Shown here: positions 51,197 through 62,300 of the stretch, piece by piece | Layout of the letters: every line of letters starts with the position of its first letter | Numbering within the stretch: position 1 is the first letter of the stretch | Origin: Podospora anserina | Lineage: Eukaryota | Direction of reading: 5' to 3' | NCBI GenBank assembly: GCA_017654855.1 | Contig: CM030337.1 | Location: 310,001-374,000, forward strand | DNA length: 64,000 nt | Translations under genes and position numbers: made by a program | The notes under the pieces: model-generated | What the model was told of the DNA's origin: nothing | Databases searched by the model: none | The model's input: only the letters and a program-made list of their open reading frames with translations

Positions 51197-53280
51197 CAGC
51201 AGTCAATAGAGACACTTTGGCTCGAACGCCGAGCATCGGAAAGAGGGGCAAAAAGTCGCCAGCAAAATTTTGCCCCGCAGCGGTCTGCGTAATGCGGGGC
51301 ATTGCTTCAAATTCCCCAGACGGCATCCATGGCTCCCGCCAGCTCTGGTAAGCGCACCTGTCAAAAGTCAATGGCTGCATTTTGCTGCATAGGTATCCAA
51401 TGTTTCTTATCAGTTTAGAAACCGCCTCAAACCATCCCTTACTCGCAGTGTGTCGAGCTGGGAGTTGGGATGGTCCATCCGATGTCTTCTCATCTGGTCT
51501 ACGACTGCTGAAACCTGATATCCATGACGAACTCTCAACTCAGCTAAATCACCTGTGTGACTGGCAGTGAACACTCTAGCGGCGTGGCCGGGGGAATATG
51601 AAGTGCCTTCCGGGCCGGTAGAACGGGCAGCTGACTGGCTGTAACGGCGTCATAACCCGGAAATGTGTCGACGGATCAACCGCCCTGGCCGGGGGGCCGC
51701 TGGTCAGTACCCCCGGCCTGGAACATGGTTTGGGTTCCAACACTGAGCATCAGACTGCACTGAAAGGCCCTCGATGGCTGTGCAGTTCATGACGATAATA
51801 AATCCCCTACGCAGTAAGGGACAGTTCCCGGTTTTTAGGCTCAGGCTACGGAGTATGATGCCTGCGGGTGGCCTCGTCTAGGTAGGTAGGTTGTCACCTA
51901 GCGTTTGAGCATGCAGAAGGATTGGCAGCTGTAGATGGAATTGGTTGATTTCCAACGCTAACGTGTGTCGTGATGGTCGGCTGCATTCGCTGAAGGGTTG
52001 CCTGTATGTTTAAGTGGTCACTTGAAATACAAAAATCGCCGGTAGATGCCGCACCACAGGCGCGTTGCATAGTGAACATCTCGAAGTGGGTGGGGCCGTC
52101 GTGGCAGCAATTGGCTAGACCCTTGCTGCACTCGAGGGCGGGGAGTGGGGTCTGTCTGGCCGAATACCGTCATGCAGCAACCAATCAAATTCTAGATTAT
52201 CTTAACATCTGCCCCGCCTTCTGGCAGATGTCCCCGCCTCTCTCTCGTGGATGGGGGGTTGCTTCTCCGCAAAATCGACAGATGCTGTGGATCTCGTCCC
52301 CTCTATCCAGACGTCCCATCGTGCTGGGTGCTGCTGGGTGTTTCGAGACAGTCAACCTTTTGAGATAATGTCGTTCCACCGTTGGATTCCCGCCTGTCGC
52401 CGAGAGCATTTTCGTGGGCAGTGAGCCGTCCCGACAGGAAGGGACCTCAGCTTGTTAGCCCCGGCCGAGCTCATGGCTTTGGGCGAGGCCTGTTCTTTCT
52501 TGACAGGCTCGTATCTGGTTAGTGTATTTAGCAGCGGGGAGACCTGGGGAGGCCGATCTTCAAGATCATCTCGATCAAACAGACGTCAATTGAGCCCCCT
52601 AGCAAAGGCCGAGCAAGTGGTGGATAGAGTACATTGTGCAACCAGTGTTAAAGTTGTCCCACGGAAGAGCAAACGCTGTCCTAGCATCCCCCATCCCATC
52701 CCGCCCCGTCATTCTGTCTGTAACCCCTCAACCACATCGACGCCCGTGTCGCGCCCCCCCTCCTCCTGCTTTCTTTTTCTTCGCCGGCCGATCATCTTAA
52801 AGCTGGTCTAGAGCTTTTCTTTGTCCCCCATCTCCCCAGTGACCTGGTTCCTACTATCTACTACCTACCTACTGCGCTTTATCATTACCCGCAGCCAGTC
52901 GCCATTCCTGGGTTGCCAACTGACGCCATTGCCGTCCCACGGGTGTCTTATCTGCCGCTCAGCACCTGCAGCGAGACTGTGATTCATTGGCAGACGACAC
53001 AATTCCATTGCCCTTTTAAAACAGGAATCACCGATAAGGCTGCTGCTCTTCCCCTCCACCCCCCCTCGTCTTTGCCATCTCCATCCTTCATTTGAATCTG
53101 CTTCCACCGCGAGCATTGGGGCGTCAACTTCAACAGGACGTCTTGCGCTCATCTGATTAACCTATCACTGCTGTGGGTGTTTGTGCCAGCCAACCCACAT
53201 TCCCCGATTCGTTTGTTGAGAAGCTCAAGACGGCTTCAAGACGGTCTCGTGTCCCTCAAGGACAGAAAAGAGCCAGAGCT

Positions 53281-55446
53281 ATGATGGCGACAATAGCCCT
53301 TTCTCGGCCGATTGCACCCCACCGCAACTCATCCAGCATAGGCTCTTTGACATCGACCATCACGCTCGATACATCACAATGCCCGGCCCCCGTGCCGAAC
53401 AAGCACATCCCCGTGTGTCCCCCCGGCCCCGTCCCGCAACAGGAGCCCACAACCCCACCACCGTCCCCCGGTAAGGAAGCCGACGCGCTCCACCAGTCCC
53501 TCTTATTCCCACCCACAGATTATGTGCGGCTCGACTCGGGTCGTTCATGCCTCTACAAGATCGATGCTGCCGGAGTGGCAGCGGCTCTGGATTATCTGGC
53601 TCGTCAACCGCTGCCCGACCCCTCACAGGTCTTCCCTTGGTTACACGGGCTTCATCCCAACAATCAGATCCAGCTTGCTTTCTTCATCGCCCGCAAGCGT
53701 TCTCTGAGGAAGACGCCTGGTTGTCTGCGTGGCATCACCATCGTCAAAGCCGATGGCGATCTCAACGTCTCCCGTCTCAAGGGGGCTATCGCGCCTCACG
53801 AGTTTCTTCAGCTCGGAAATGCCACGGCCGAGTTTCTTGAGGCAGATCCCCGGGAGGGCTTCTCTGTACGCAACTTTCAGATTCAAGCTGCCAAGGCAGC
53901 CATGACCTCTGATATCATCGTCTATGGCGATGATGAGCTCTCTGTTCGCAAGTTAGGATTCGATATAGCCGGTGCACAGCAACGATGGCGTGAGAAACAA
54001 GAAGCCCATCGGAATCCTATTCCCCATTACAACACATTTGTCTGTGTCAGCCCCTTTGGCGAGTTTGAGGAACTTTATCCCGAGATTGTGGCCGTCAACT
54101 CGTCCGGCCAGCTCACAGGTCAAGTTCTCGACTTCTTCCATCAAGAACGGAGGGAGATGTATGAGATGACCCGTGCGTCTGAGATATCACACAACGTCTG
54201 GCTGGGCCCAACCCCAGATCAGGGGTCTGACGAGGAGCTCTGTTATGACGTTCTGATCGAGTGCAACGATCTGGGTCGTCTCAACCCCGGAGCCTTGCAA
54301 GCCATCGCCGAGGGTACCAATGAACCGGACCAACATCTTTCGGAAGCCACCCAGACCTTCCTGGAGTTTCCATCTTCGGGCAGTATACTAGCTCCCACCT
54401 GGTCGCACGCCGAAGCAGACGGCATCCTCGATACGTGCAAATGGATCTGGCATCTTGCCCACGGCACCCTCCCTTCTGCCTTCTCAGCCAGTTCCAAGTT
54501 CGATCATGAAGATTCCGATGGTGATATCGACATGCTCACCTCTGCCCCATCCACACCCAACAAGCCCAGGAGAATCCTGATTCACTGCGCAGACGGGTAC
54601 ACCGAGTCAACCATGCTCGGGCTCGCGTATTATTCCTTTGTCACCTTCCTTCCCATCCCGGAAGCCTGGCTAGCCCTTCACACAACCCAGCAGCGCAACT
54701 TCTTCGCCTACCCCTCTGACGTAGCCCTCCTCACCGCCATTGCCCCCCGGCTGTTGCAGGAATCCCCCCTGTTTACCCTCCAGAACCGTACCTTGAGTGA
54801 TATCACGAGTCTCATTCGCAACGAACCAAAGTGGTTCGCTGGGTTCGACGGCTCCTTTCCCTCCAGGATCCTAGATTACATGTACCTAGGAAACCTCGGC
54901 CACGCCAACAACCCGGACTTGCTCAAGTCCCTCGGCATCGGTCAGATCCTCTCAGTCGGTGAGCTGGCCATGTGGCGTGACGGTGAGCTCGAGCAATGGG
55001 GGGAGGAGAACACGTGTGTGGTTCAAGGGGTGCAAGACAACGGAATAGACCCCCTAACAGACGAGTTTGAACGGTGTCTAGAGTTTATTGGTAAGTTCCC
55101 ATTTGGTTGTTTTTTACCATCGCCAAAAATCAAACTAACCAACCCCGCCACAGAACGAGGACGCCGAAACGGCACCGCCACGCTCGTCCACTGCCGCGTG
55201 GGCGTCTCCCGCTCGGCAACAATCTGCATCGCGGAGGTTATGAGATCCCTCCGGATGAGCTTCCCCCGGGCGTACTGCTTCGTCAGGGCGAGGAGGCTCA
55301 ACGTCATCATCCAGCCTCACCTGCGGTTCGGCTACGAGCTGCTCAAGTGGGAGGAGCAGAACCAAGGGGAGGGCTTCAAGAGGGAGCTGGAGTGGCCCGA
55401 GATTGCGAGAGAGATTGCCTTGATGAATCGACCTTATGCTCGGTAG
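53281..55446 (+). CDS. PPS1: Dual-specificity protein phosphatase Pps1-like
   Basis: QVFPWLHGLHP, GFSVRNFQIQ, degenerate HCADGYTES and active HCRVGVSRS. Intron 55091-55153. Confidence 0.93.
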   Translation: MMATIALSRPIAPHRNSSSIGSLTSTITLDTSQCPAPVPNKHIPVCPPGPVPQQEPTTPPPSPGKEADALHQSLLFPPTDYVRLDSGRSCLYKIDAAGVAAALDYLARQPLPDPSQVFPWLHGLHPNNQIQLAFFIARKRSLRKTPGCLRGITIVKADGDLNVSRLKGAIAPHEFLQLGNATAEFLEADPREGFSVRNFQIQAAKAAMTSDIIVYGDDELSVRKLGFDIAGAQQRWREKQEAHRNPIPHYNTFVCVSPFGEFEELYPEIVAVNSSGQLTGQVLDFFHQERREMYEMTRASEISHNVWLGPTPDQGSDEELCYDVLIECNDLGRLNPGALQAIAEGTNEPDQHLSEATQTFLEFPSSGSILAPTWSHAEADGILDTCKWIWHLAHGTLPSAFSASSKFDHEDSDGDIDMLTSAPSTPNKPRRILIHCADGYTESTMLGLAYYSFVTFLPIPEAWLALHTTQQRNFFAYPSDVALLTAIAPRLLQESPLFTLQNRTLSDITSLIRNEPKWFAGFDGSFPSRILDYMYLGNLGHANNPDLLKSLGIGQILSVGELAMWRDGELEQWGEENTCVVQGVQDNGIDPLTDEFERCLEFIGKFPFGCFLPSPKIKLTNPATERGRRNGTATLVHCRVGVSRSATICIAEVMRSLRMSFPRAYCFVRARRLNVIIQPHLRFGYELLKWEEQNQGEGFKRELEWPEIAREIALMNRPYAR

Positions 55447-56488
55447 AAAAACACAAGAAGGAACACACGAGCACAATTCTCCCGCCTGGTTTGCGGGAGT
55501 GGTGGTGAATCCATATGATGGGAACGGTTTGGATATTTGAAGTCAAAATTGGAGAGAGGGAAAAGTAAACCCAAAAAAAATGGGGGGGAAAGGTGATCAC
55601 CGGAGGAGGAGCGATACCCTGGGTTTTTTTTGGTTTGGAAGTCGAGGCTGGGGACAACCTCTTGAGTTGTGCAAATGTGTCGATTAAGTTTGGGTGTGGG
55701 TGTTTCTGGGTACGTTGTTGGATTATGTCTCGGGTTCTGTCTTTGGGTTCGGCTGGACACGATCTATTGTGCTATTTTTCTTTCGGTGCCTTGGTTGATT
55801 TCGGAGCGTTTCTGGTATGGACTGAGGCTTTTCTCAGAGGCTTTGCTCACAGGCAACGTTGGTTCACGGACGGGTGGACTGGAGCGTCGTTTATTTTTTG
55901 CCATTCTTGTGCAAGCTATCTTTACTTTTTGGGTTATCTCATGACGACTGGATGCAACACGACAACGGCAACAGCAGCACACGATGACGGCTTTTTTTTT
56001 TGTTTTTCTAGTTCGGCAACCTTTTGTTATGAATATTGCAATCTCATTTGGGCAACAGGCAAGCAAGCAGAGCGTTCGAGTTTGCGGATTGGAAATGATT
56101 TGCTTTGGACCATGTAGGATTGAATAGGGTACCCGACATGAAATCTGGCCTCGGGCAGACGTGTTGTTTCCAGATAACATATTTATTCTGCTTATCAATG
56201 TTTATTCAGCTCAGACTTTAATATCTTGCCTTCATCCTGTGACAACACCCTCCACTGGTCAAGAGGGCAAATCTTGCACGGTTGAATGATGCCTCTTAGG
56301 CCTCTCTCTATCCCTCCTGTTGGCCGTCGCTGAACAGCTTCATCGAGACGGGCATGGGTATTCAAAAGAAGTTCAGGGAGTTTATGGAGGCAGGCATTAA
56401 AGAGATTCGATTACGCTATTCTGATATCCATAAACTCCAAACGCTATGCACATGTTCCCCGTCAAGTTACTCAAACCACTCAGCAAAA

Positions 56489-57241
56489 TTACCAGACACG
56501 ACCTGAAATAAAATCACGCTCACCACCCAGTTCCCCCTTCTTTGTCTTGACCGGCGCCTCGATCAACTTGCCATCTGAGCTAAACGCTTTATCTTCACCT
56601 TCGTCTTCGGCAAGGTACCGATCGTCATCTTTATTCCCTTTATCCCCCGTGCGCTGTGCCCTTGGTAAGCCCTCTCTTGCGCGGCCTTTTCCTTTTCCCT
56701 CTCCTTCATCTCGACTGCTACCACTAGTACCACCAAAAAAGTCCTCTTCAACTTGAAGAGGCTCTTCGTCTTCGTCGGGGCGGGGATGCGTCGAGCCAAG
56801 AGGCATCCCAGGAAGTGAAGGATCACCTGGTGGCAACGGTGTTTCCAAAGCCTGCATGAGCTTTGCAATGTGATCCTTCACCATATTACCTGTAACATCC
56901 TTGCCAGAATTGTTCAACGCCGGAACTACGAGTTCCTCGTCCTCCGAGGTGTTTATTACATAATCATGTTGGGGATCGTAATCGGGATACAAAAATCCCA
57001 TAACATCATCGCTGGACCCTCCTTTTCTCTGCAAGCCCGCCGCCTTCTTCACTGCCCCTTCCACCGTCTTTTTTACACCCTTGACCGTAACATCTGGAAC
57101 CATGTCGGCTAAACTGTGTGCAGCGCCCGTCATACTCTCTGGGACCACTCTTTGCAGAGCTTTCTTCAACTTTGCCTTCCGTCTCACCTTTTCGAATGAC
57201 TCGTGCTTGCCGGCAATGGCCTCGGTGTTCTCGGTGAGTTC
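56489..57241 (-). CDS. 250-codon open frame directly continuing ATG18 past its TAG; candidate stop-loss extension
   Basis: In frame with the ATG18 stop at 57242-57244, with no stop until 56489. Charged, disorder-like composition and no recognisable domain. Confidence 0.6.
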   Translation of the reverse strand, partial: ELTENTEAIAGKHESFEKVRRKAKLKKALQRVVPESMTGAAHSLADMVPDVTVKGVKKTVEGAVKKAAGLQRKGGSSDDVMGFLYPDYDPQHDYVINTSEDEELVVPALNNSGKDVTGNMVKDHIAKLMQALETPLPPGDPSLPGMPLGSTHPRPDEDEEPLQVEEDFFGGTSGSSRDEGEGKGKGRAREGLPRAQRTGDKGNKDDDRYLAEDEGEDKAFSSDGKLIEAPVKTKKGELGGERDFISGRVW

Positions 57242-58640
57242 CTATGCGTTATATGAGGCGTCCAGCTTATCATCCGCCTCAACGACACTATTTGGAAAGT
57301 TAGAGGTCGGTGGGATGTGATTGAAGAGGAAAAACATACGAGAACTGCTTCACCAAGTACCCCTCCCCTCCCTTTTCCATGTCAATGTTGTACACATAGA
57401 AGATACCATCGCTTGTTACTACCATGACCTGAGGCGAACTGCTACTCATGGCCACAACACTGCGGATGGGTCCGCCCCCGCCAGCTGGTGCTCCTTGCAG
57501 TACCGTGCTGGTTGGTTTAGGAATCTTGATGCTTGCGAAATCACGCTCGGGTTCGAACATCTCAGACACGGCGGCTGGTAGATAAGCCCCCACTGCTCCG
57601 ACCACGCCACGCCCGACAATTTGAGATGACCGTCTGATCATATTGCCAAACATGCCGCTGTTCCGCAGAGCTTTGCTTCCTTCGCTGCTGGGCTGGCTCG
57701 TGGTACTGCCATACTCTTCCGCCCCACTGCTTCGCCGAGAGTCGTCGTCGCTGTTGGGAACATAGTCGGCACTGTTAATACTGGCAGACCGGGCAAAGCG
57801 GTTACGCCTAGGTGATGTTGCTTCGGCGCCTTCTTGAGAATTGTTGGTCAATTTGTAGATGTGGACAGTGTTGGAGACGGACGAAACACAGAGGATGGTT
57901 GAGCTGAGGTTGAAAGACATGCTGTATATGGTCGAAGGAGTGGTACCCCTCCGGAACTGATACAGCCTCTGACCACTGGGAATCGCAAACACGCGAATAA
58001 TGGTGCTCTTTTCTGACGCCGTCGCAAGGAGAGTGCCGTCGTTATTCAGCGCGATGCAGCACAGCGGCGACCGGTGAGCCTCGATTAGATTGATAGAGAC
58101 CTGCTTCACCGTATCATATATGAGTACCTCGCCGCTGGTAGTCGGAACATAACTGGACAGGGGGGGGGCATGCGATGGCCGTCTCTCGCCTGTGTCCTCT
58201 CGCTGTTTGGGAAGCGGATAGGCTATGTAGCATCTCTCGGACGAGGGAGACAGGGCGCAAATAGCGTTTGGATTCGGCGAGGTGTTTATTGTTTGCAAAA
58301 GTGTCATGTTGGAAATGTCGTAAAGATAGATCTCCTCTTCCAACACCACGGCCAGCCGTTTTCGATTTAGCCGCACGGCAAGGATGGCGTTGGGGAAGGT
58401 GAGTTCGCAAATGACCGAGGCCCGCTTAGTGTTCTGGATCACCAAATGGCGGGGTGAAAGAACCAGGGCAACGAGCGAGGTCGAGAAGAGCATCTCGATT
58501 ATGGAGACATTCCCGTCATCGCTGTTGAAGATCTTGGAAAAGGGGTCTGTATGGTAGATGCGGAAGCCCTTGGAGGTGCCGACAGCCAGACAGCTGTGGT
58601 CCTGGTTGAACGTGACGAAGTTCAGGGCGCCGCCCGACAT
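57242..58640 (-). CDS. ATG18: Autophagy PROPPIN Atg18/WIPI
   Basis: [46 protein letters not shown], phosphoinositide motif FRRG and ERDFASIK. Intron 57288-57339; the last exon encodes [15 protein letters not shown]. Confidence 0.96.
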
Positions 58641-59341
58641 GATGGGCGAGCGGTGTTCAACGAGGGACTTGGGGTCTCGAGAAAGGGGTTGCGGTGGACG
58701 TTGGTTGGAGCTGTTGTGTGCTAGCGAATGCCGATAGTGTGCTCGTATGGCTACGTAGCTAAGAGACTCAGTTAATATGGCCAGTGTGTTCAAAGCATGT
58801 TGAGAGCAGAGGAGAAAAGAAGGCGTGGTTCGAAGCTTGTTGGACAAACGTCTGGCCTGGTCCGATGTGGGAGTGGCAGGGGAGCTGCTGCCTTTGGCTT
58901 TCCCATGGCTGCGATAAGATGAAGGAGCTCGGGCCAGCCGATCGTCATTGCGGGGCAGTGGGATCATGCTTGCCTTCCATCCAGCCCCCTGTGCTTGCTT
59001 TTTTGGGCACCTGCCACTGTCTGCCCGCCCAGATTTGGGAAGGTGATCAGCTGTCCCTGGGGAAGCCGCAGAGGACGAGCCAGCCATCAAGGTTCCTACC
59101 CCCAACGCACAAGTAGATACGATCATGACCATCAGCATTTACCAACTTTCTCGGATATATACATTAACTAGAGCCCCAAAATGTCCTCCTTGCACTCAAC
59201 AAAAACCAAAACCAAAACGGCAGGCGTGTAAATGGGTATGTGCCTTGCTTGCTATGCATGAGAAGTATACGTGATCTGGTCTGCCCCACGAATCACCCAA
59301 CCCAATACTCCCCATCACCACCCAAACCCCCCTCACCTCGT

Positions 59342-62300
59342 TCAACGAACCATTATATTCCTAAATGAATCTGAGATGTCGCTCACGGTTTGCGGTGGCC
59401 CGTGTCTCTCCTGCACCGTTGACAGGCCCTGCGCAAGCCTGCCCTCCATAAGCTTCAGGATCACAGGCGGTACGCTGTCATCAGTAGCCCTGATCGTAAG
59501 GCGAATCATCTGTCGTGTATCTGTTAGCACCGTGTTCCAGCCCTTGGTGAATGTGTCAGGCCGAGACAAGAGAAAACATACCTGTGTTCCGTAGTTGGGC
59601 TCCAGTCTGAGCAGGCAGCCAATCTTCCCACCCTCGCTCGTGTGCACAACGCTGGCACCCACAAAATTCTTGGTATTAGGGTCGACATTGTTCAGCACCC
59701 CCCACCTGAAACCCTTGATGACATCTCGAATGAAGCCGTCGGTAAGTTCCCTTTGCTGGTCCTTGGCAGCAGTTGTCAACCCAAACACCTGTTGTGCCTC
59801 ACGAGGGGCCCCGCCGATTTGCTTCCACCTCTTGAAGAAATCCTCAGCAGTCAGTTCGGCAGGATCCATGAACTTGTGGAGAGTGACAGGAAGCTTGAGG
59901 GTAAGAGCCTGCAACGCACCGGCCAGGTAGCTGATCCGGATTGTTGGGCTCTTTTCGAAAACCTTCTTGGCTTCAAACATAATGACCTGCTGGGCCTGAG
60001 CACCCCGTGCAATCGTCGTGTCGGGAAGGCCCTTGACGTCCCATGTCAGATTGGTCTTTTCTGACGTGTCCAAATCAAGCGTCGTGGTGAACGATCCAAC
60101 AAGAGCCGGAGTCTTGTTTGTAAAGTACAAAATCAGGCAAGCCATCTGACCGCGGTACTCGGACCGCACGCCAACCTGGAGCTGGCCATCCTCGTAAAGA
60201 ACGCCATCTGGCTTGAGAAGAAGCCGGTTGAAGCCCTTCTCCCAGTTGGGTGACAAGTGAGCGGCACTGGCGAGATTGGGTATTGACTTTGCCTCTGCCG
60301 GGCCAATATTGTTCATGTCAAGACCTAAGAGATCGCCGGCCGCACCCCCGTTTGGCTTGGTACCGGCGTTGGTGAACGTCCTTCTAAGACTTCCATTCTT
60401 GGCCAGCGTGAGCTCAGCGGCGTCCGAGTTGGCGTCCTTTCCTCCCACGATCCACGTCCTCTTATCGCTTGTGTTCGCATGCTTCCGGTGTAGCCTGGAA
60501 AGCAAGGCCGACTCGCGCTCTGGGAACGGTGGCATCTCATCACAAACAGTGCGGAGAAGATCGTCGGTCGGCATACTTGCCAGTGTCAAATATTCGCAAG
60601 CTCTTTGCTGCAGTTCAGGGTCAAGCGTGTGGCTGTAGACGTTGAAGACGTTGACGAGCTGTGGCTTGATCTCGGGGAACAGATTCACGTATTTTACAAA
60701 ACACGACAGAATCATGCCACGAGTCCCTGGTGCGCAGGCGGGGAGCTTGCTCTGCAATGCAATAAACTGCTCGATCGGACTGCAGCCCTTCTCTTCAGCA
60801 ATCAAATGACCAAACTCTCCGAGGATGTAGGCCCCAATCTTGACCAATGTCTCGTGACAGTGATCTTGTTTGCAGTATTGAAGAATGTTTTGGGCAGCAT
60901 ATACTTGCAGCTCCTCGTTGTTGGTGATAATTTGGATGACACGCTGCCATACCTCATCACTGACATGATCTCCTGCCATGGCGATGAGACGCAGGGAGAT
61001 GTCTACATACCACTGGACATCGGTGGCATACTTTTCCGTCAGAATGGCGATTTTTAGCACCATCTCTTCTCGAATTGCAAAATCGGCGTTTTGAAGGTAG
61101 TGAAGAAGCTCGCCCACGATTGGTCGTGCATTTGTGTGATCGCACATGCTATAAAGGAGATCAAGGCCCTTTCGTCGAACGCTGATGTCTCTGTCCTTGA
61201 GCGATCCCAAAATCACCTCCTGGTGTTGCTTGATGGGACCAAGTGTGGTGTCAGATCGAGCGGCCAAGTGCGTCATAGCCTCAAGACCTAGATACCGAAC
61301 ATTTGTCTCCCTCGACTGGATAAATCGCCCCAGTCTCTGAGATATCTGCTTCATGAGAGCGTGTTCAGTATCGAGGTGGATGATGAGGTTGATGGCTTCG
61401 AAGAGAACAGCATTTTGCGCATTGTTTTGCTGTACATTTTTGTTCGTTTCCAAGGCGAGGTCCAATATCCTTTGAAGGGACTGCCGGATCATCTCCCGAA
61501 CGTGACTGTCCTCGGAAGGTGGGAAATACTGCAGGAGTCGCAAGAGCTTGATCTGGAGCCAGGGACAAGGCACCTTGTAGTACAGATAGTCTGAGGCGTA
61601 CTCCCCGTCGATAAGGATCCGTTTCAGGCGGGCGGCGGCCTTGGCATATGCGCCCTTGTACTGCTCGAGGTCGTCCTGGGCCAAAGCCATGACTAGTGAG
61701 GTAACGGATAATGCCACGCCAAAATCCGGGTCATCCATAAGATGTATTATCCTCTCTGCCCATTGAGGCTGGACGATGCCAGGGTTTTTTCGGTACAAGC
61801 GGAGCAGGGTAAGCGCCGCCTTCTTTTTGACAAAAGATTTCGAGGTGCTACGTACATGTTAGCGAGATAATAACGAGACGTAGATGTGCGCAGGAGTACA
61901 ACCCCCTGCCTGATACGTACGGTGAGATCAGTAACCTGTGTACCTCTGCGCTAAGGGCCTCGCCCATCTCCCGACCACCCACGTTTGCAATGGCGTGCAG
62001 TGCAAGGCAGTTGAACAGTTCGTTGTGGTCCATCAGATCTTTCCGAATACTGTTCACCACCAGGTGTAATAGCTCGTGCTGCTCGTGCAAGAACAAGGTC
62101 ATTGCCAAATACCCAATCTGCTTCTCCGAGTACTTTGTTGCCGAGATGAGATTAACTGCCTCGAGGTGTCCAAAATCGACGTTCCAGCCCAGAATGTAGA
62201 TGTACAGAAGCTTGCAAACATATTTCTTTTTGTGATACCCGCTCAGATTACCATCTGCCAGCCATGTCAGTGTGGGCTTATAGAATACATGTGATCGGAA

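Follow-up and report, generated by a model that had tools for sequence, protein, structure and literature searches.

An open reading frame continuing behind the ATG18 stop codon of Podospora anserina: a possible extension of Atg18 through stop-loss RNA editing

The ATG18 gene of Podospora anserina, a member of the P. anserina complex (Sordariales), ends with a TAG codon behind which the same reading frame stays open for another 250 codons. The gene lies on the minus strand of a stretch of 64,000 nucleotides (nt) (assembly GCA_017654855.1, contig CM030337.1, positions 310,001 to 374,000), called here the window, to which all coordinates refer. This 250-codon frame is real coding sequence and not a product of chance. 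At a rough probability of 0.45, the stop codon of ATG18 is bypassed by editing and the 250 codons serve as an extension of Atg18. The frame would then belong to the 3′ portion of the ATG18 transcript and would be read by those ribosomes that pass the UAG. The most likely cause of such a bypass would be adenosine-to-inosine (A-to-I) editing in the sexual stage, in which the A of the UAG (57243) would be deaminated to inosine, turning UAG into UGG (Trp). The product would consist of Atg18 (448 amino acids, aa), one tryptophan and 250 further residues, that is, a PROPPIN carrying a helical and basic, then acidic and disordered, tail, while unedited mycelial mRNA would give the normal protein. Such a tail may change the stability or the location of Atg18. 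Three features of the locus speak in favour of this reading: the frame is in phase with ATG18, it is interrupted by the TAG alone, and this stop is of the editable UAG type.

The translation of ATG18 exon 1 belongs to the PROPPIN family (PF21032 in Pfam, 2.2e-58) and contains the FRRG lipid-binding motif; searches returned 1773 Atg18 matches at E ≤ 1e-20. In its spliced form the protein has 448 aa, and the corresponding product of a sibling species (P0143) ends likewise. Since the Atg18 proteins of annotated relatives have their C-terminus at the same place, the TAG of the window is the canonical, old stop of Atg18. A first-pass annotation, made from the sequence alone, had described the anatomy of this region (intron 57288-57339, TAG, 250 open codons, TAA) and was right in every coordinate, the intron being spliced in all four RNA runs described below. 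It had also placed the first downstream ATG about 110 nt past the stop; the measured distance is 108 nt.

The frame cannot be attributed to chance, because the probability of 250 open codons is 1.5e-6 given the base composition (0.052 stops per codon), not one of 20000 shuffles was free of stops, and 12 and 16 stops occur in the strand's two other frames. Coding character was measured with a codon log-odds score, which compares in-frame with off-frame codon frequencies and was trained on other long open reading frames (ORFs) of the window: a first model used 22 ORFs and a later one 17 non-overlapping ORFs (9810 codons). The 22-ORF model gives a score of 0.255 for the frame, against -0.35 and -0.72 in the other frames, and of 0.21 for ATG18 exon 1. 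The training ORFs of the 17-ORF model score between -0.09 and 0.51 when each is left out in turn. The GC content at third codon positions (GC3) of the frame is 0.50, lower than that of ATG18 (0.65) and of the adaptin gene upstream (0.62).

The product of the frame has no recognizable relatives among known domains: the Pfam search with the 250 codons gave no family, and the look-alike search in the ESM Atlas gave no usable match. An AlphaFold2 model built from six sequences has a mean predicted local distance difference test (pLDDT) value of 46, which is too poor for a fold search; it shows low-confidence helices at residues 2-133 and disorder at residues 134-250. The basic patch and acidic disordered tail announced by the first-pass annotation agree with this model, which is itself of low confidence. 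The complex prediction of Atg18 with the 250-aa product scored 0.03 and carries no weight either way.

The 36 codons that separate the TAG from the first in-frame ATG (hereafter the spacer) show where the coding signal starts. In the 17-ORF model the spacer scores -0.80 and -0.21 in two frames but 0.51 in that of ATG18, a value that equals the top of the range of the coding ORFs. In controls in which only sequences with an open frame were counted, this score was reached by one of 7489 mononucleotide shuffles, seven of 13795 dinucleotide-preserving shuffles and none of the 2590 open windows taken from non-coding-like DNA of the window (maximum 0.475). The first 18 codons of the spacer score 0.816 with a GC3 of 0.78; none of 21339 mononucleotide shuffles, two of 25850 dinucleotide-preserving shuffles and two of 7060 open windows of non-coding-like DNA did as well. 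For comparison, the open in-frame leader of ATG18 itself scores -0.16, the leaders judged true for other ORFs range from -0.26 to 0.11, and the 36 codons past the stops of 17 control ORFs range from -0.79 to 0.40. The coding signal begins at the TAG rather than at the ATG at 57133. This continuity across the stop favours an extension of Atg18 via stop bypass over a separate gene started at that ATG. Moreover, the spacer is coding-like yet free of ATG codons, so its translation needs ribosomes coming through the TAG. An independent gene should show a coding signal from its own ATG and a non-coding leader in front of it; the sequence found in the place of that leader is the spacer, with its score of 0.51.

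The RNA evidence consists of consensus contigs from four runs (X1, X2, X7 and X13) belonging to four studies. These runs are not recorded as RNA and were taken as such from the spliced joint and from the uncovered intergenic flanks. Each of the four gives a single contig, spliced and 2403-2445 nt long, that starts at 58777-58857, ends at 56322-56391 and spans ATG18 and the whole frame. The 5′ ends of the contigs are at 58777 (X1), 58854 (X2), 58857 (X13) and 58837 (X7), and the 3′ ends at 56322, 56358, 56390 and 56391. On one flank all four runs leave 58959-59075 uncovered. On the other, cover is interrupted in each of them within 56129-56391; the depth is zero over 56151-56267 for X1 and over 56268-56384 for X13 and X7. 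A poly(A) remnant is visible in X7 as eight loose T before 56391 on the plus strand, 98 nt past the stop of the frame. A contig of 2413 nt from a sibling species encodes the frame (P0002) together with Atg18 in its spliced form of 448 aa (P0143). The simplest reading of these contigs is an ATG18 mRNA whose 3′ untranslated region (UTR) of about 850-920 nt is the frame, although contigs alone do not prove a single molecule. The median 3′ UTR of P. anserina is reported as 212-239 nt (PMC9801653).

Alternative splicing around the stop was considered and rejected. Six in-phase AG sites with purine-rich upstream tracts lie downstream of the TAG; exon 2 offers just two weak GT sites, and the single canonical joint was found in 4/4 runs. 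Use of the AG of the TAG itself as a splice acceptor would be out of phase.

The coordinates of all these features are collected in Table 1.

Table 1. Features of the ATG18 locus of P. anserina and of the reading frame behind its stop codon (window coordinates)
Feature	Position	Strand	Remarks
ATG18 5′ UTR	58641..58857	-	RNA contigs start at 58777-58857
ATG18 exon 1, PROPPIN beta-propeller with FRRG	57340..58640	-	start ATG at 58640
ATG18 intron, 52 nt, GT..AG	57288..57339	-	joint 57287/57340 in 4/4 RNA runs
ATG18 exon 2, last 14 full codons	57245..57287	-	first base completes a split Ser codon
ATG18 canonical stop TAG	57242..57244	-	ends ...SYNA-TAG; candidate edited A at 57243; context C-A-U-A-G-G-A-A
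36-codon spacer, stop to first ATG	57134..57241	-	without ATG in any frame; coding-like codon usage
First in-frame ATG, codon 37	57131..57133	-	A at -3; 108 nt past the TAG; P0126 and P0130 start here
250-codon frame and TAA stop	56489..57241	-	open codons 57241-56492, TAA 56491-56489; real coding, fast-evolving, mostly disordered
A of codon S173 (AGT), UAG triplet in predicted 3-nt hairpin loop	56725	-	P0130 encodes Gly (A>G)
3′ UTR after the stop of the frame	56391..56488	-	contig ends; one poly(A) remnant

Upstream of its ATG, too, the ATG18 frame is free of stops, over 166 codons (58641-59138, minus strand), and older Atg18 models begin within this stretch, with lengths of 610-612 aa in P. 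anserina and P. comata and of 546-564 aa in others. These N-terminal extensions are annotation errors, since the stretch scores as non-coding (codon log-odds of -0.03) and the RNA contigs start only at 58777-58857. The unspliced C-termini of the same models are annotation errors as well. In a sibling species the ATG18 intron (product P0141) is apparently 51 nt long instead of 52 and contains no stops; a prokaryote-style gene caller could thus read through it, which accounts for the product of 465 aa.

Homologues of the frame were sought with the frame and a six-sequence profile among 5.8 billion proteins, and with the frame among 1.84 billion representatives. Only two real groups were found: a gene-caller cluster of six members, drawn from public assemblies, and one protein of Apiosordaria backusii. 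Within the cluster, P0126 shows no difference from the window from codon 37 on and is present in 40 contigs with lengths of up to 57 kb, P0130 (214 aa) is one residue off the window, and the other four members are sibling-species variants with 9-11 real differences each. The ATG at 57133 is kept in all sibling variants. The A. backusii protein, KAK0741901.1, is a hypothetical protein of 199 aa and the orthologue of the frame. Its accession adjoins that of the Atg18 of the same species (KAK0741900.1), which indicates that synteny is kept. The frame and the A. backusii protein share 54% identity, with in-frame gaps only and the same C-terminal end, whereas the Atg18 proteins share 94% (compared via the sibling Atg18 P0143, which differs from that of the window at 2/448 residues). 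Homology reaches residue 2 of the A. backusii model; the Met of this model is aligned to Lys57 of the frame, and the start codon is not shared. Inside the species complex, changes have accumulated in the frame at about ten times the rate of Atg18 (10/231 vs 2/448 residues).

The Atg18 cluster includes eight named records of Podospora, Triangularia and Cercophora, none of which has an annotated protein for the frame, and a metagenome scan for DNA of relatives gave 150 pattern matches, none of them a relative. Two short products, P0124 and P0125 (53-54 aa; window 56489-56648 and 56971-57133), were rejected as distant homologues. They are converted copies and not relatives, because all of their differences are C>T on the coding strand (12/12 and 14/14); they resemble assemblies made from C-to-T converted reads, or else copies with point mutations.

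In Sordariomycetes, A-to-I mRNA editing during sexual development has been shown for Sordaria, Neurospora and Fusarium (PMC4817773, PMC5381528). About 9% of the UAG triplets are reported as edited in F. graminearum (PMC4817773), in which between 323 and 403 stop codons undergo stop-loss editing; the resulting extensions are described as longer and more disordered than controls (PMC4817773, PMC13123824), and six out of six tested cut reporter abundance (PMC13123824). For S. macrospora the number of called stop-loss sites is 47 (PMC5381528). Editing sites of F. graminearum prefer U at -1, A or G at +1, G at +2, and A or G at +3 and +4 (PMC4817773). The ATG18 stop lies in the context ..GCA UAG GAA.., in which the A of the UAG has U at -1 and, at +1, a purine, and the downstream bases G(+1), G(+2), A(+3) and A(+4) agree with these preferences. 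The view of the first-pass annotation that the context suits editing is in line with the published preferences for U at -1 and for purines at +1 and +3 (PMC4817773).

A second adenosine of the same mRNA deserves mention. P0130 is encoded on a single mRNA-sized contig of 2333 nt, and its sole difference from the window is S173G, which falls on a UAG triplet (Table 1); its predicted place in a 3-nt hairpin loop is the context favoured by fungal A-to-I editing. The change may stem from editing of the majority of transcripts in a single RNA sample, or else from a rare strain single-nucleotide polymorphism. If it were editing, then the ATG18 mRNA would be edited in Podospora.

The longer Atg18 made by editing or readthrough that the first-pass annotation had proposed gained from the spanning contig in 4/4 runs, the conserved frame and the coding-like spacer. 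Several results weigh against it. At 57243 the TAG is kept, without other letters, in the consensus contigs of all four runs, and in the contig of P0130 it is not majority-edited, because this contig still gives a separate 214-aa call. Minority editing would be invisible here, since the RNA evidence consists of consensus contigs whose developmental stage is not known. At positions -2 and -3 the stop context has A and C, where U and G are slightly preferred. The candidate edited A is predicted in an internal loop of a weak fold and not in a hairpin loop (minimum free energy of -7.7 kcal/mol, z = 0.5); hairpin loops hold 4/14 UAG triplets of the mRNA, the ATG18 stop not being among them, while 62% of F. 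graminearum editing sites are reported to lie in such loops (PMC4817773). A fused protein of about 699 aa is absent among the best 120 of the 1773 Atg18 matches, which cover 238-758 aa, and one annotated orthologue stands alone, KAK0741901.1 of A. backusii. The divergence of the frame (10/231 residues) is similar to that of the conceptual translation of non-coding upstream DNA (about 7/148 by hand count), so the constraint on its residues is weak. In the publications found, as far as their accessible text goes, no site-by-site account of A-to-I editing is given for Podospora, only ADAT expression being discussed; the literature search on Atg18 and editing found nothing linking the two, and that on the Podospora locus names found no papers. 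The further suggestion of the first-pass annotation, that a longer Atg18 could retarget autophagy, is pure inference.

The alternative that survives best, although unlikely, is a separate small gene that has escaped annotation: an orphan of 214 aa starting at the ATG at 57133, with its own transcript that begins within the 3′ end of ATG18 or shortly behind it, overlaps the ATG18 mRNA and was merged with it by assemblers, the in-phase, stop-free junction being a coincidence. This ATG has an A at -3 and its conservation in all sibling variants fits a genuine start, but A. backusii does not share it, the Met of its protein aligning with Lys57. The same species annotates its 199-aa hypothetical protein beside Atg18, as expected for an independent gene, yet the annotation of the eight named Podospora, Triangularia and Cercophora records calls none. 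The 3′ UTR past the stop of the frame, of about 100-170 nt, would be of normal length for such a gene, the contigs cannot establish a single transcript, and no editing was seen in them. On the other hand, just 108 nt would have to accommodate a terminator, a promoter and a 5′ UTR, and the coding-like, ATG-free spacer would be left unexplained. The chance that an unrelated gene were in phase, open and preceded by a TAG can be estimated at about 1/3 × 0.146 × about 1/3, or about 0.015, the 1/3 for the choice of stop being assumed.

Translational readthrough of the unedited UAG by a near-cognate tRNA, constitutive or regulated, would give a small share of extended Atg18; this is improbable. It shares the anatomy and the codon evidence with the editing reading and agrees with the unedited TAG in 4/4 RNA runs. 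However, there is no significant structure in the 30 nt on either side of the stop (z = 0.5), and leaky contexts are of the UGA-CUA or UAG-CAA type, while UAG-GAA is not known to be one of them. Readthrough of an ordinary context usually stays below about 1%, which would leave little for selection to maintain 250 codons. In favour of readthrough, mutations that alter the reading of stop codons in P. anserina are reported to alter development and lifespan (bioRxiv 10.1101/2020.02.09.940346).

Finally, it is very improbable that the frame is untranslated today, as a decaying remnant or a lucky open frame in an unusually long ATG18 3′ UTR: its divergence in the complex resembles that of flanking non-coding DNA (by hand count), its GC3 is below the 0.62-0.65 of neighbouring genes, it has no Pfam family, Atlas look-alike or confident fold, and a 3′ UTR as long as about 700 nt occurs in the convergent neighbour gene too, but the openness of the frame (1.5e-6, against 12 and 16 stops in the other frames), a codon score equal to that of real genes and its maintenance in another genus at 54% identity, with in-frame gaps only and the same end, all stand against it.

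An Atg18 extended by editing can be compared with several known systems. The readthrough extensions of fungal glycolytic enzymes, which add a peroxisomal signal, are short, follow a leaky UGA context and carry a targeting tripeptide at the end. The ATG18 case is similar in that a C-terminal extension behind a stop would alter the function or destination of a protein, but the extension is not short and has neither a leaky UGA context nor a targeting tripeptide.

The white collar 1 protein (WC-1) of S. macrospora acquires a stop-loss extension of 131 aa for which there is peptide evidence (PMC6794485). The two cases have in common the order Sordariales, a long extension within an annotated 3′ UTR and, in a conserved regulatory protein, a UAG stop, which in WC-1 is changed to Trp in the sexual stage. 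They differ in that the edited WC-1 peptide was detected by mass spectrometry, as described in the same source, while nothing edited has been seen for ATG18, and in that the ATG18 extension is about twice as long and is annotated as a separate gene in another genome. With FgDBF2 and the 403 stop-loss genes of F. graminearum (PMC13123824, PMC4817773), ATG18 shares the UAG and a long, coil-rich and poorly conserved in-frame extension; the role proposed for that class, stage-specific tuning of a housekeeping protein, is the one proposed here for Atg18. FgDBF2 has a short tail with the function of a degron, and 82% of the surveyed Sordariomycetes have the DBF2 TAG in a hairpin loop (PMC13123824). 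In contrast, the ATG18 tail has 250 aa, its N-terminal half is predicted to be helical and the TAG is outside any predicted hairpin loop. The PUK1-like genes described in PMC4817773 are similar in that a single UAG interrupts one frame with coding signal on both sides. However, the part before the stop is incomplete in PUK1, whereas here it is a complete canonical Atg18 that ends as its orthologues do.

Regarding the genes around ATG18, the convergent neighbour (53161-56214, plus strand) holds an ORF of 761 codons with a dual-specificity phosphatase domain (PF00782). This ORF ends at 55446 and RNA contigs run to 56001-56214 (three out of four as far as 56129-56214), so that its 3′ UTR measures about 700 nt; just about 110-190 nt separate the phosphatase transcript from the 3′ end of the ATG18 mRNA. 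The upstream neighbour (59345-61858, minus strand) lies on the same strand as ATG18 and encodes the alpha subunit of the AP-2 adaptor (Adaptin_N, Alpha_adaptin_C).

Stop-loss editing is an established phenomenon, and there are earlier examples of long extensions, so ATG18 is a plausible, unproven new member of that class. According to a 2024 review, what role stop-loss editing plays had not been studied in any case (PMC11156358), and DBF2 is presented as the first functional one (PMC13123824, 2026). Hundreds of fungal genes are stop-loss edited, and for very few of them has the function been worked out. If true, the ATG18 case would be notable for its length, as the longest stop-loss extension described, for its target in core autophagy and for its invisibility to annotation. 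Autophagy is required for the development of fruiting bodies and spores in Sordariales, and a conserved tail of 250 aa on Atg18 would connect editing with autophagy. That P. anserina has a developmental editing switch that fuses a 250-residue module, conserved across genera of the Podosporaceae, onto Atg18 is a tentative proposal, for which we would not claim even odds.

Whatever its mode of translation, the annotations of the Podospora anserina complex lack an expressed and conserved frame, and the codon-usage test across stop codons could reveal further such cases. If the extension is real, this 'gene' would exist solely as the conditionally translated 3′ part of the mRNA of another gene, and it would show how new coding sequence can arise and persist in a 3′ UTR behind an editable stop.

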